Positions 5,516 through 11,128 of a DNA stretch of 55,098 nt are shown in pieces (within the stretch, counting starts at the first letter, position 1; every line of letters starts with the position of its first letter). The notes below the pieces were generated by a model, which had not been told where the DNA came from, did not search any database, and worked only from the letters and a program-made list of their open reading frames with translations. The stretch comes from a virus (taxonomy: Duplodnaviria; Caudoviricetes), in the IMG/VR virus record IMGVR_UViG_3300021197_000270, positions 1-55,098 of that record; one strand, written 5' to 3'. Made by a program: the position numbers and the translations under genes.

Positions 5516-5948
5516 AGCGATTTACATTTTTGAAGATGAGCATGACCACGTTGGAAGACCAGACGAGGTTTACGTTTACAAGCATTATGACAACTACCCA
5601 GAAGGTGCGGTGGATTTCATTGAGAACGCCAAGGAGTTCGCATGGGAGTTGCCACGGTTTGAGGCTGACGAGTTTGCGGCATCGTTTGTTGCGGCGAACA
5701 AGGATCGGAAGGGTGGCGGCATTCGTTTGGTCAACGCGAGTTTCAAGGATCGTGATGAGATGTTGGAGGCCAATCATTGGTGCGACTATCATTATGTGAT
5801 CTCAAAACATAACAGCCAAGATTTGTGGATTGAGATTTGGGACAGCCGTTATGACATGGATTCGGATGATACGGCTTGGGTTTTGATTGACGAGTTAACG
5901 CATACGGAGATGAAGGAGAAATACGGTGAACGTGCTATCGCTGTTTGA
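5505..5948 (+). CDS. Conserved hypothetical protein (MGTRA...H.D.YP family)
   Basis: N-terminal motif common in phages; GGAGG RBS. Confidence 0.75.
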   Translation: MGTRAIYIFEDEHDHVGRPDEVYVYKHYDNYPEGAVDFIENAKEFAWELPRFEADEFAASFVAANKDRKGGGIRLVNASFKDRDEMLEANHWCDYHYVISKHNSQDLWIEIWDSRYDMDSDDTAWVLIDELTHTEMKEKYGERAIAV

Positions 5949-7122
5949 CGGAATGTCATGTGGGAGGCTGGCTCTTGAAAGGGCTGGCTTTCCTATCCAC
6001 AACTACTTTGCCAGCGAGATCGACAAGTATGCGATTGAGGTGGCGAGAGCCAACTATCCTGACACGGTGCATCTGGGTGATGTAACCACCGTAACCACAA
6101 AGCATGGTCGTCTTTTTTACGAGGATGAAAACGGTGTTGGGTGTGGCGCGGACATTGATCTGTTGATCGGCGGCTCACCCTGTCAGGGATTTTCGTTTGC
6201 CGGCAAGCAACTCAATTTTGACGATCCGCGTTCCAAACTTTTCTTTGAGTTCGTGCGGCTGTTGAAAGCGTTGAAGCCAAAGTATTTCCTGTTGGAAAAC
6301 GTCAACATGAAGAAAGAATATCAGGACGTTATATCTGACCTTCTGGGATGCAAGCCTATAGACATCAACTCAAACCGTGTAAGCGCGCAGAATCGGCGCC
6401 GTTTGTATTGGACGAACATTCCAGTCAAGTCCTTGCCGGAGAACAAGCATATCTATTTGAAAGACATCTTGGAGGATGGGTTCACGGATCGGGATAAGTC
6501 GCATTGCATAGACGCGAACTACTTCAAAGGCGGCAATCTGAAATCGTATTTTCAGAAGAACCGCCGCCAGCTTGTGTTTGATTTTGACGATCAGACGGAA
6601 GACGGCTTGCAGTTGGCTGGTGAGGCAGACCTAAAGGGTCACGGCTACAATCGCCGCGTCTATCATCCGGATGGCAAGGCGCCAAGTTTGTGTGCGAACT
6701 CTGGCGGCAATCTTGAACCAAAAGTCGTGGTGGTAGGTGAGGCCGAGGGCAATTCGTTTTATCAGGAGCGCAAGGTTTATGATCCGGAGCACAAGAGTCC
6801 AACTCTTACCGGCCAGCGGTCAAGCAACGTGCCAAAGATTCTTCAAGTGCCAAGGGGCAAGAACCAAGGTGGTATAAAAGCGGAGGATGGGAAGGTTCCC
6901 ACGTTGAGCGGATCGTCATGGGAGCATAACAATTTCTTGGCGGTTGATGGTATGAAGTGGCGCAAGTTGACGCCCATTGAATGTGAGCGGTTGCAGACCG
7001 TGCCGGACAACTACACCAACCATGTGTCGAACACCCAGCGTTATCGGATGTTGGGCAACGGCTGGACGATTGACGTAATCTGTCATCTGCTAGGGGGCAT
7101 GAAGGATGCTGTCGATCAGTAA
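5926..7122 (+). CDS. DNA (cytosine-5)-methyltransferase
   Basis: Motifs LFDGMSCG, GSPCQ, ENV, QNRRR, R.LTP.E.ERLQ, LGNGW. Confidence 0.95.
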   Translation: MNVLSLFDGMSCGRLALERAGFPIHNYFASEIDKYAIEVARANYPDTVHLGDVTTVTTKHGRLFYEDENGVGCGADIDLLIGGSPCQGFSFAGKQLNFDDPRSKLFFEFVRLLKALKPKYFLLENVNMKKEYQDVISDLLGCKPIDINSNRVSAQNRRRLYWTNIPVKSLPENKHIYLKDILEDGFTDRDKSHCIDANYFKGGNLKSYFQKNRRQLVFDFDDQTEDGLQLAGEADLKGHGYNRRVYHPDGKAPSLCANSGGNLEPKVVVVGEAEGNSFYQERKVYDPEHKSPTLTGQRSSNVPKILQVPRGKNQGGIKAEDGKVPTLSGSSWEHNNFLAVDGMKWRKLTPIECERLQTVPDNYTNHVSNTQRYRMLGNGWTIDVICHLLGGMKDAVDQ

Positions 7123-8750: not shown

Positions 8751-8923
8751 TCGCGCAAGACTTCATCGTCCATGGGTCTCACTACTATGTAGTGAAGGCA
8801 AATACCATGGGCGAAGCGATTGCGCTAATTGAGAACGATCCGGACTTGTTACCAGTCGATTACGAGACGAACAAGTTCAAGGTCATTGGCTACACCGAGT
8901 CGGAGGACAACTATGATAGTTAA
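8726..8923 (+). CDS. Hypothetical protein
   Basis: GTG start, fits operon packing. Confidence 0.6.
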   Translation: MSDQKEYLIAQDFIVHGSHYYVVKANTMGEAIALIENDPDLLPVDYETNKFKVIGYTESEDNYDS

Positions 8924-9101
8924 GTTTCTAACGGTGATACTGATGTGCACCGGAAGCGAATGTAAATGGATTGAAGGTTCATTGCACAATGAAAAATGGC
9001 AGTGCTTGTACGAGATTGCTGAAATGCGGCCTAAATATTACGAAAACAAAACCATGAAATTTGTGGACTGTAAGAGAATAACAACTTATAAACATGGCTA
9101 A
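8913..9101 (+). CDS. Small Cys-containing protein with hydrophobic N-terminus
   Basis: GGAGG RBS; four Cys. Confidence 0.6.
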   Translation: MIVKFLTVILMCTGSECKWIEGSLHNEKWQCLYEIAEMRPKYYENKTMKFVDCKRITTYKHG

Positions 9102-9672
9102 TGATAATAAAATCTTAGATTTCACAATTACTTTGTACTCAAACAAGTTGAAGATTGTGAAGGAGGTGGTCTGTAAGCCCACCGAAGTGGAGAAGGTGAT
9201 TGATGAGTTGGACAAACAAGCCAGCATCCCCAGAAGGGGAGACGGTCACCATGGTTACTACATCGAGGTCGAAGTAAGGAGGCATAAGGATGTATATAGG
9301 AAACCAAACGGTGTTGATAAACGACACCCTAAACCTGCTACGCGGAAAGCTAGTGCGGTTCATTCTGGAGGACGGGGACATGCGGATGATCGCAAACCTC
9401 GTGGCAACAGCGGACGAACTGGGTCTGGAGTACGATCAGGAGTCGATGACGTATCGGGATCGAAAGGGCGAGGAGGCAAGACGCAAGAGCCGAGCGCAAC
9501 TAGCAAAGGAACTAGAGCCAGGACTCAATGCACTGTTCGGGACGGATTACGCAAGACACGACCCGAACCTAAGTCCGGAGGAAAGAGAGCAGATGCTGAA
9601 GGAGGCAAAGCGTCTGGAGGCAAACCGCAAGGCGCGAGAAAAGTATCACGCAAAAAAGAAAGGCAAAGCTAA
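9094..9672 (+). CDS. Hypothetical protein; basic low-complexity C-terminal two-thirds overlaps 9290..9703 in another frame
   Basis: 8-bp overlap at start; TAATG coupling with 9672 at its stop. Confidence 0.5.
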   Translation: MANDNKILDFTITLYSNKLKIVKEVVCKPTEVEKVIDELDKQASIPRRGDGHHGYYIEVEVRRHKDVYRKPNGVDKRHPKPATRKASAVHSGGRGHADDRKPRGNSGRTGSGVRSGVDDVSGSKGRGGKTQEPSATSKGTRARTQCTVRDGLRKTRPEPKSGGKRADAEGGKASGGKPQGARKVSRKKERQS

Positions 9673-9703
9673 TGGCAGCAAAGCGCGGAAGACCTCAAGT
9701 TGA
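9290..9703 (+). CDS. Accessory protein containing a copy of the major capsid protein N-terminal segment
   Basis: AGGAGG RBS; SRAQLAKELEPGLNALFG identical to MCP residues 4-21. Confidence 0.8.
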   Translation: MYIGNQTVLINDTLNLLRGKLVRFILEDGDMRMIANLVATADELGLEYDQESMTYRDRKGEEARRKSRAQLAKELEPGLNALFGTDYARHDPNLSPEEREQMLKEAKRLEANRKAREKYHAKKKGKANGSKARKTSS

Positions 9704-9848
9704 GGAGAAGGCGGCTTTTCGTAACGTAGCGGTCCCGATAGAAATCTACGACATGATCCGCAAGTTATCCAAGGCTGAAGAGCGGACGATTGCTAGGCAA
9801 TTAGCTGTTCTGATTAAAGAAGCATACCATCGTAAATTGGAGGTTTGA
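9672..9848 (+). CDS. Ribbon-helix-helix-like DNA-binding protein (58 aa; not in ORF track)
   Basis: MAAKRGRPQ...FRNVAVPIEIYDMIRKLSKAEERTIARQLAVLIKEA: beta-strand/helix/helix pattern. Confidence 0.7.
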   Translation: MAAKRGRPQVEEKAAFRNVAVPIEIYDMIRKLSKAEERTIARQLAVLIKEAYHRKLEV

Positions 9849-9849
9849 T

Positions 9850-10065
9850 ATGTTTGGTAAGTTTATGAAGATGTTTTTCCCTATGTTTGTTTCGGAACCG
9901 GAACGTGCGCGGGATGAGAAGGGTCGCCTTGTTGGGGACGACAAGAAGACTCCTACGTTTAATGAAGCGTGGGTCGGGGGTCAGGCGCCGGCAAAGAAGG
10001 TTGCACCCAAGCCGCTACCGAAGAAGCGTGGCAGGCCAAAGGGTAGCAAGAATAAGAAAAAATGA
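9850..10065 (+). CDS. Basic protein with RARD.KGR...DD..TP..NEAW motif and AT-hook-like KRGRPK
   Basis: GGAGGT RBS; motifs visible. Confidence 0.75.
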   Translation: MFGKFMKMFFPMFVSEPERARDEKGRLVGDDKKTPTFNEAWVGGQAPAKKVAPKPLPKKRGRPKGSKNKKK

Positions 10066-10211
10066 AACGCAATCCGCTGGCACGCAAGATCCGTGAGCCG
10101 AGGTTCAGGAAGCGTGTCGTAAAATCCAAGAAGGTATATACAAGGAAGGGGCGGTCAATCCGCCCCTTTCATATTAAGAAACACCTCTTAGCAAAGCAGA
10201 TTCTTTTATGA
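10062..10211 (+). CDS. ArfA-like small basic protein (49 aa; not in ORF track)
   Basis: ATGA overlap; MKRNPLARKIREPRFRKRVVKSKKVYTRKGR resembles the ArfA core. Confidence 0.5.
   Translation: MKRNPLARKIREPRFRKRVVKSKKVYTRKGRSIRPFHIKKHLLAKQILL
10145..10175. terminator. Hairpin/terminator between convergent units, lying inside the ArfA-like ORF
   Basis: AAGGGGCGG-TCAAT-CCGCCCCTT stem. Confidence 0.7.
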
Positions 10212-10407
10212 CTGCTTCAGTATAATTATCCCAACGACCCTGAATGATCTTTCGCTGCACCTCGTTGGCGCTATATAATTGTTTCCAAAGCTCACCGATA
10301 TAATCAACTATCTCAGCGTGGCTTTTGTCTTTTAGGTCTAGTTCAGCTAAAATTCTAAACTGGAAGTTTGTTTCTGGATTATCTAGTTCATGTTGATAAG
10401 CACTCAT
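10174..10407 (-). CDS. Hypothetical protein
   Basis: AAGGAG RBS. Confidence 0.7.
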   Translation of the reverse strand: MSAYQHELDNPETNFQFRILAELDLKDKSHAEIVDYIGELWKQLYSANEVQRKIIQGRWDNYTEAVIKESALLRGVS

Positions 10408-10423: not shown

Positions 10424-10522
10424 TTAGAACAGACTCAGCTGCTCCGGCTCGCGCATGATCTCGTCTATGTCTTTATGCATGATCTCGGTAAACTCACCAG
10501 CCGACCACCATGAAATGATCAT
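10424..10522 (-). CDS. 32-aa mini-ORF MIISWWSAG...EQLSLF (possible deletion remnant of a PAPS-reductase-like gene; clamp-binding motif)
   Basis: ATGA overlap with upstream gene; fills the gap between neighbours; not in ORF track. Confidence 0.55.
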   Translation of the reverse strand: MIISWWSAGEFTEIMHKDIDEIMREPEQLSLF

Positions 10523-10971
10523 GCTTCCCACCTAAACTTCAGCTGCCCATAGATTGGTTGCCACTCCCGACTCCGATTCTTGCGATCCCAGCCCTGCGAG
10601 GTGGGCTTGACCTCCCCGACAATCTTCCAACCGGCGCCTCGAAGCGAGGAGCCAGACTCTTCTTGCAAGGTATATGTCACCATGCGTTGACCACCCATTT
10701 GTTGCCAAATTCGCCAACACCGCCCGTAAAGAAAACTGCACGAGTTTTTGGGTGCGTGATCTACAACGCAAACTCTGGTAACCTCGGCTGTCACCCCATC
10801 GTCTAGCATCCGAGCTACGGGTCTGCCCACAATGGCTACCCCGACAAGTTCGCCTGCATAGGTTGCCCCGATAGCAAACTTACCCCCGCCAGTAGGTTTG
10901 TTGTGGCGGTGAAAGTTATCTACGAACTCGTTCGCCTCACGAATGCTGATCGGTGTTACCGTTAACTTCAC
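10519..10971 (-). CDS. XF1762-family / Mom-like GNAT-fold protein (putative DNA modification)
   Basis: EANEFV...HRH..P...KFAIG...GVAIVGRPVAR.LDDG.T.EV.R...CSFLY...TYTL..E.G.SL..AGW; GTG start at 10971 with GGAG. Confidence 0.75.
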   Translation of the reverse strand: MKLTVTPISIREANEFVDNFHRHNKPTGGGKFAIGATYAGELVGVAIVGRPVARMLDDGVTAEVTRVCVVDHAPKNSCSFLYGRCWRIWQQMGGQRMVTYTLQEESGSSLRGAGWKIVGEVKPTSQGWDRKNRSREWQPIYGQLKFRWEA

Positions 10972-11128
10972 AAGCCTGTTCTCCGGTGCAACATTCACTG
11001 ATAACCAGATGACATACCGAGCATTGTATGTGCCCATGGACATCAACTGGCGGCATCATCGTCTGGCATCGAGGGCAATGCCCCCGTGCTAATCGTTCTG
11101 CAAAAGTACCGTCACCCTGATCTATCAC
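10937..11128 (-). CDS. Small zinc-finger protein
   Basis: CPRC...HGH.QCSVC...ECC. Confidence 0.7.
   Translation of the reverse strand: MIDQGDGTFAERLARGHCPRCQTMMPPVDVHGHIQCSVCHLVISECCTGEQACEVNGNTDQHS

Follow-up and report, generated by a model that had tools for sequence, protein, structure and literature searches.

The rescue peptides ArfA and BrfA offer the closest described parallels to the locus presented here. In the account given in PMC8012679, a stem-loop in arfA leads to premature termination or RNase III cleavage, ArfA is produced from non-stop mRNA and trans-translation keeps its level low. The same source describes a rho-independent terminator located before the stop codon of brfA, which is likewise expressed from non-stop mRNA. 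It also places the C-terminus of ArfA in the empty mRNA channel, assigns the recruitment of RF2 to F25 and to the beta-strand Q27-E30, and reports that the change A18T prevents RF2 activation (PMC8012679). In E. coli K-12 (L001:4432-4650), arfA and the convergent gene mscL overlap by 4 nt, and a small RNA derived from arfA has been annotated at the 3' end of arfA; arfA antisense RNA and MscL are the subject of a paper (PMC10070815). According to Table 1 of a survey of Alphaproteobacteria (PMC11633108), arfA occurs in 0/2,376 genomes. A phage 'ArfA' has already been named in print, since a 2025 paper gives this name to gp30 of HTVC027P, for which it indicates high expression both early and late in infection (PMC12753301).

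The locus considered here belongs to an unannotated IMG/VR virus record; the whole of this record (55,098 bp; estimated completeness, 95%) is called the window below. Its DNA polymerase is closest to those of 023Pt_psg01 (53.8%), DSL-LC04, HTVC023P and HTVC027P, identity with 023Pt_psg01, HTVC023P and HTVC027P being 47-54%. Parts of the stretch are found in 20 sequencing runs from 13 studies, with the largest shares in seawater and marine samples. No tRNA or tmRNA gene was found within the window. One of its small ORFs is best read as encoding an ArfA-family rescue factor that lacks the GKG motif and would be made from non-stop mRNA, a reading that we regard as fairly probable. Indeed, since residues that align with ArfA are kept and a hairpin lies at the equivalent place, the most likely reading of the product is a factor that rescues ribosomes and responds to the capacity of tmRNA.

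This ORF (10062..10211, + strand) comprises 49 codons from an ATG to an in-frame TGA. It matches phrog_20887, a family of unknown function (E 8.9e-8, residues 2-29 on profile positions 3-30 of 46), and a profile built from 18 unique phage cores, hereafter A1 (E 2.8e-20). The original prediction had proposed a translationally coupled ORF at 10062-10211, with a stop codon inside the convergent gene. The coordinates and the peptide proved correct throughout and the TGA (10209..10211) does fall within the convergent ORF (10174..10407, - strand), at a depth of 38 nt. The conserved core corresponds to residues 2-31 (10065..10154, + strand) and aligns with residues 12-44 of E. coli ArfA minus G35-K36-G37; the tail codons located 3' of the hairpin (10171..10208, + strand) are not conserved.

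Relatives were collected from IMG/VR in a first scan, which gave 22 loci, and in a core-alignment scan, from which 80 loci were kept, including 6 on contigs that the first scan had already supplied. Among the 18 unique sequences of the 30-codon core, pN is lower than pS in 153/153 pairs (mean pS 0.77, mean pN 0.25) and therefore the core is a protein under purifying selection. The tails behave differently: the 6 close homologues found by a word-indexed search have about the first 31 residues in common and diverge completely afterwards, and tails are wholly different between relatives that show 77-100% identity in the core. As the DNA directly 3' of the hairpin is variable, each relative of the L002-L010 group has its own tail and its own stop codon. 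In L011, L014 and L015, the tail crosses a TGnTATAAT-like -10 box and the AGGAG of the following gene contains the TAG of the ORF, so that the nominal tail of the ORF is promoter and leader DNA in these loci. Judging from these comparisons, the codons beyond the hairpin are not under selection as coding sequence.

An ORF of 71 aa with a basic C-terminus (9850..10065, + strand) precedes the ArfA-like ORF and its TGA shares an ATGA with the ATG of the latter, an overlap that suggests translational coupling. This upstream ORF, which gives weak family matches, also precedes the ArfA-like gene in L002-L004 and L007. Its C-terminal end is an AT-hook-like RGRPKGSKNK stretch, and a gene starting with the same motif sits after the ArfA-like ORF in L011 (from about 2177 onward) and L015 (from about 3164 onward). 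As the motif-bearing gene lies before the ArfA-like ORF in the window and after it in L011 and L015, the two small genes travel together in either order. On the other side, the convergent ORF (77 aa, 10174..10407, - strand) overlaps the ArfA-like ORF by 38 nt; it is present in L008 (84% identity), missing from L002-L007, L009 and L010, and gave no match in the family-profile scans. L002-L010 are syntenic with the window over a 192-aa ORF, a gene encoding an RHH protein, the 71-aa ORF and the ArfA-like ORF, followed by a convergent block that holds Mom-like and SNF2 helicase genes. In the window, the genes of a Mom-like DNA modification protein (10519-11046, - strand; phrog_1384, E 1.5e-40) and of a DNA methyltransferase (5926-7122, + strand; phrog_116, E 6.1e-76) border the early region.

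The hairpin of the window (10146..10168) has a 9-bp stem with 7 G-C pairs and a 5-nt loop, and is included in the ArfA-like ORF, 39 nt before its stop codon. Its arms occupy 10146-10154 and 10160-10168, and in RNAfold the stem grows to 11 bp and spans 10144-10170. Folding of the 96-nt region gives a z-score of -3.9, and 0/200 shuffles fold as well. The position and the 9-bp length predicted originally are thus right, with one small correction: the hairpin does not begin after the core, as its 5' arm encodes K29-G30-R31 and therefore overlaps the last three core codons (29-31). The stem is identical in L002-L008, and L009 and L010 carry the same stem with an altered loop.

The same hairpin lies 5 nt downstream of the stop codon of the minus-strand gene (10174..10407), and its U tail on the + strand, which had been suspected from the outset to be weak, is U-poor (TCATATTAAG); a consensus scan makes its terminator call for the minus strand and not for the + strand. 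The hairpin is probably a bidirectional terminator. The U-poor tail on the + strand and the terminator score obtained on the minus strand alone make read-through to the stop codon plausible in the clade of the window. They fit a reading that we consider unlikely, in which the ArfA-like protein is constitutive and the hairpin is merely the terminator shared by two convergent units, chiefly that of 10174-10407, with no tmRNA sensing. The overlap of the + strand ORF with the hairpin would then reflect genome compaction, and enough + strand transcripts would continue to 10211 for a 49-aa protein with its own stop to be made.

Contigs from four RNA libraries cover parts of 8800-10172 and are uninformative on transcript ends and on the strand transcribed. 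One contig from a marine RNA library, which belongs to a relative, spans the hairpin by joining 10061-10172 to 10521. A contig that crosses the hairpin would, if it derives from RNA, correspond to read-through, to antisense transcription or to DNA carry-over, and it counts among the observations that agree with constitutive synthesis. The relative from which it originates is devoid of the 77-aa gene 10174-10407, like L002, L003 and L005, so that the 10172/10521 junction and the relatives lacking this gene indicate that the hairpin marks a recombination boundary.

In the first viral set, a strong hairpin precedes the stop codon in the window and in 19/22 loci; these hairpins start 0-4 codons past the Y-x-R-K motif and end 5' of the stop. 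The other three, L019, L020 and L021, stop early and lack a hairpin. In the pooled viral set and its control, a hairpin was retained when its dG was <= -17 kcal/mol, when it started between -15 and +12 nt from the core end and when it ended before the stop; it was called T-rich when at least 5 T were present in the 12 nt around its 3' end. Among the pooled unique viral loci, 24/88 carry such a hairpin before the stop, 20 of these 24 with a T-rich 3' end. In a matched control, for which 152 ORFs with a minimum length of 120 aa were taken from the window and 18 loci, a hairpin is found in 10/152 and a T-rich one in 0/152. The family differs from this control with Fisher p-values of 2.8e-5 (hairpin) and 4.2e-10 (T-rich), values that overstate independence because the members of the family are related by descent. 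The matched control replaces an earlier one, in which the search window was wider than in the family test and which gave 8/52 at dG <= -17. Among bacterial loci, 7/10 display the arrangement according to inspection by eye and folding (L025, L026, L028, L029, L031, L032 and L033; a script recognised 6 of them, and the fold of L026 supplied the seventh), and it is absent from L027, L030 and L034. A T-tract terminator inside the ORF is also carried by L046, which encodes a canonical ArfA.

The viral hairpins use nine unrelated stem sequences and the bacterial ones further stems; therefore the position of the hairpin is conserved and its sequence is not. Such a recurrence is hard to reconcile with a terminator that serves mainly a convergent neighbour, all the more as the arrangement is also found where the following gene shares the orientation of the ORF and where the terminator has a tract of 6-7 T on the strand of the ORF (L011, L014, L015, L074 and L077). 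The lack of any T-rich hairpin at the matched position in the control ORFs and the absence of conservation of the post-hairpin tails, even between close relatives, likewise speak against constitutive synthesis of a full-length protein. In its favour, 64/88 unique viral relatives, including all three named ones (023Pt_psg01, HTVC023P and HTVC027P), end at an ordinary stop without a hairpin of this kind. The family as a whole thus does not require non-stop expression, and the expectation that homologues would keep the hairpin before the stop is borne out by those that possess one and fails for these 64/88. In the clade of the window itself, we consider non-stop expression somewhat better supported than its converse, and it is the weakness of the U tract that holds our estimate at this level.

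Two further observations concern the same junction. In L011, L014, L015, L074 and L077, a conserved -10-like box (GTATAAT/GATATAAT) is located just after the T tract; the presence of this box after an ORF-internal terminator in viral contigs indicates that a new transcription unit begins within the nominal tail of the ORF. In the viral locus L069 (601 onward), a terminator hairpin with a T tract has the stop codon in its loop, and this locus is, to judge from its layout, an intermediate between the stop-before-terminator and the terminator-before-stop arrangements.

The relationship of the ORF with ArfA is apparent from both pairwise and profile comparisons. BLASTP aligns it with E. coli ArfA over 34 positions, 14 of which are identical (41%), with one 3-residue gap (E 5e-6 for this single comparison), and with the ArfA of genome G066, which is Pfam-positive, with 16/36 identical residues (E 4e-5); this G066 ArfA resembles the phage family more than E. 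coli ArfA does. A phmmer search of the whole PDB with the ORF returns 6 matches at E<=10, all of them ArfA chains (E 0.54-1.2). When the A1 profile is compared with 177,635 PDB sequences, six ArfA chains are found at E 5.4e-4 to 1.7e-3 and the next match is L14, at 0.43; with a wider profile (A2), ArfA is found at E 8.1e-5 and the next match at 0.49. Furthermore, hhalign aligns A1 with a profile of 12 ArfA sequences (A4) over 30 columns, with a probability of 95.3% and E 2.3e-8. A4 is mostly enterobacterial because a class-level search for canonical ArfA gave only 2/201 genomes. The original prediction had likened the ORF to an ArfA core; the string given there corresponds to residues 14-44 of E. 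coli K-12 ArfA, the likeness goes beyond chance in both BLASTP and phmmer, whose matches are ArfA chains only, and the similarity at profile level that was to be looked for is found with A1 and A2 against the PDB as well as with hhalign. From these alignments, the ORF is very probably homologous to ArfA at the profile level.

Its place among catalogued families is less direct. Neither the Pfam ArfA model (PF03889) nor DUF7230 (PF23876) matches the window ORF at E<=10, a six-frame search with these models gave nothing either, and an NCBIfam scan of the ORF found no family. The gathering score of PF03889 (25.5 bits) is not reached by the window ORF, nor by L018 (16.7 bits) or HTVC027P gp30 (20.2 bits), and that of PF23876 is 27 bits, the window ORF not being reported and its relative L028 scoring 30.7 bits. 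The ORF is outside PF03889 by the Pfam criterion. Searches of a phage collection of 50,697 records found nothing, either by megablast with the region or by tblastn with the ORF; the blank tblastn result is probably due to the low-complexity filter, since a profile search found the gene in three named phages. Among 1.84 billion representatives, the A1 profile retrieves 810 clusters (50% identity) at E <= 1e-3, whose members are small and basic, range from 34 to about 95 residues and have a single motif in common, and the names of the cluster members read 'hypothetical protein' only. In a scan at E<=1 of 145 members (the window ORF and 144 matches), DUF7230 matches 92/145, with a best E of 3.9e-10, and ArfA matches 37/145; in a second set of 34 scanned at E<=10, which includes E. 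coli ArfA and the HTVC027P protein, DUF7230 matches 24 and ArfA 18. E. coli ArfA itself gives a weak match to the DUF7230 model (E 0.11).

The missing GKGS, a caveat raised at the start, takes the form of a 3-residue gap at G35-K36-G37. The segment KGKGS (K34-S38) is invariant in the 12 A4 ArfA sequences, and the window ORF lacks G35-K36-G37. Bridging sequences, in which an NPxAKxxRxPKYK N-terminal motif is followed by KKG(K/R)GSFKR, are HTVC027P gp30 and the chromosomal genes in L051 and L058 from the Alphaproteobacteria-class sample; partial insertions at the GKG site are seen in L053 and L054. These natural intermediates, which combine the N-terminal motif of the family with or without the 3-residue insertion, explain the absence of GKG from the window ORF. 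On this evidence, the ORF belongs to the branch of ArfA in which the GKG insertion is missing and which is listed in Pfam under DUF7230.

Equivalents of ArfA P23, F25, R26, R28, V29, K31, K33, K34, Y39, R41 and K42 are present in the core. In the stretch K21-R31, 6/11 residues are K or R, and this stretch holds the most conserved positions of the family: K21, S22, K23, K24, Y26, R28 and K29 are invariant in the A1 alignment. By alignment, the segment that recruits RF2 corresponds to F15 and K17-R18-V19-V20, which are conserved in the family. E. coli A18 aligns with R8 of the ORF, and the invariant A7 of the family is one position off. A predicted complex of the core with E. coli RF2 scored 0.00, against a mark of 0.32, in a run made without controls, and carries no weight either way. 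It is likely, given these alignments, that the peptide binds the mRNA channel of the ribosome, and we put its dependence on a release factor at slightly better than even.

Related sequences are also found on bacterial chromosomes. The A1 profile matches 22/301 sampled genomes of the class holding an alphaproteobacterial MAG, and chromosomal homologues were located on bacterial genome contigs (L027:2989-3105 and L025:2995-3138), as well as in L048, L051 and L058. In a Pelagibacteraceae genome, the homologue lies directly after polA and converges on ribonucleotide reductase genes; in the alphaproteobacterial MAG, it is found among AAA/VWA, AraC and fatty-acid hydroxylase genes.

These data have to be weighed against the proposal, which we find distinctly improbable, of a peptide that binds the ribosome but does not rescue it, its basic tail filling the mRNA channel and thereby blocking tmRNA-SmpB or ArfB, or modulating translation, with no activation of a release factor. 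It would agree with the fact that the basic tail is the best-conserved part of the peptide, with the missing GKG insertion and with the different residue at the A18 position, as ArfA(A18T) is described as binding ribosomes and recruiting RF2 without activating it (PMC8012679). Nevertheless, the equivalents of the RF2 contacts (F/Y15 and K17-R18-V19-V20) are conserved too, and the alphaproteobacterial chromosomal copies occur in housekeeping contexts, where an inhibitor of the cell's own rescue would be odd. As for a small basic nucleic-acid-binding peptide with no relation to the ribosome, whose likeness to ArfA would come from K/R-rich composition, the shortness and biased composition of the peptide, the weak single-sequence E-values against the PDB and the absence of a Pfam match for the window ORF would suit it, but it is very improbable in view of a BLASTP E-value obtained with compositional adjustment, of the hhalign result, of two profiles whose sole strong matches are ArfA chains, roughly three orders of magnitude ahead of the next match, of the GKG-bearing intermediates and of the matching of non-basic residues as well (N, P, F/Y, V and Y).

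Under the preferred reading, that of an ArfA-family rescue factor made from non-stop mRNA, the ArfA-like gene would be the last of a + strand block and would be translated through coupling to the upstream ORF. Transcription would stop at the hairpin 10146-10168, about 39 nt 5' of the stop codon, and, as the transcript would end before this codon, ribosomes are proposed to reach the 3' end of a non-stop mRNA. As long as the host has trans-translation to spare, the product of about 37-38 residues would be tagged by tmRNA and degraded. Infection, mRNA decay or RNA-cleaving defences may saturate tmRNA-SmpB, in which case the peptide would escape tagging and build up. Its basic C-terminal half (K21-R31) would then enter the empty mRNA channel of stalled ribosomes, and F15 with K17-R18-V19-V20 would recruit a class-I release factor, RF2 by analogy, so that the nascent chain would be freed. 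We infer in this way the transcript end, the control by tmRNA, the binding to the ribosome and the RF2 dependence, as well as any role against RNA-cleaving defences.

More broadly, DUF7230 may represent a second, GKG-less branch of the ArfA superfamily, made up of widespread RF-dependent rescue peptides that are encoded both by many phages and by chromosomes of lineages reported to lack arfA (Alphaproteobacteria, including SAR11, and candidate-phyla bacteria), in which a terminator between core and stop codon has been repeatedly gained or kept and which are made only when trans-translation is saturated; we put this forward tentatively, at a little under an even chance. The same joint reading, with the same reserve, has phages carrying the factor so that ribosomes and untagged phage proteins stay available when the cell fills with non-stop complexes through infection or RNA-cleaving host defences. 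If the rescue reading is right, phages tune ribosome rescue by the same sensing of non-stop mRNA on which bacteria rely for ArfA and BrfA, and trans-translation capacity is linked in a testable way to phage infection or to RNA-cleaving defences. It would also provide a function for the DUF7230/phrog_20887 family, with its 810 clusters at 50% identity, and would extend ArfA-type rescue to lineages in which the survey, as given in its Table 1, found no arfA (PMC11633108). A literature search found no study of DUF7230, of such a phage rescue factor or of non-stop control of a phage gene, apart from the annotation paragraph on HTVC027P gp30.

Among the systems to which the locus can be compared, DUF7230 (PF23876) and phrog_20887 are without assigned function, and the former matches many relatives (see above) but not the window ORF. 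HTVC027P gp30 has the same N-terminal motif as the window ORF, matches A1 (E 4.9e-7) and comes from the same phage group; unlike the window ORF, it keeps a GRG insertion, ends with an ordinary stop, has no hairpin and adjoins the small terminase gene. BrfA of B. subtilis is RF2-dependent and its terminator is of the type seen in many of the relatives examined here; the likeness is one of gene arrangement, drawn from its description. ArfA (YhdL; PF03889), known from E. coli and other beta- and gammaproteobacteria, is the nearest counterpart. The window ORF differs from it in lacking G35-K36-G37, in falling under the Pfam threshold and in being phage-encoded, and the phage hairpin, of the terminator type, has a short stem (9-11 bp), whereas that of E. 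coli arfA is a long RNase III substrate. In both cases, however, the product is a small basic peptide with an unconserved tail, and the cores align over 30 columns with a P-x-F-R-x-R-V segment, a KK pair and Y-x-R-K in common. Both genes carry a stem-loop inside the ORF before its stop codon, and the 3' end of each overlaps a convergent gene, which is mscL in E. coli.
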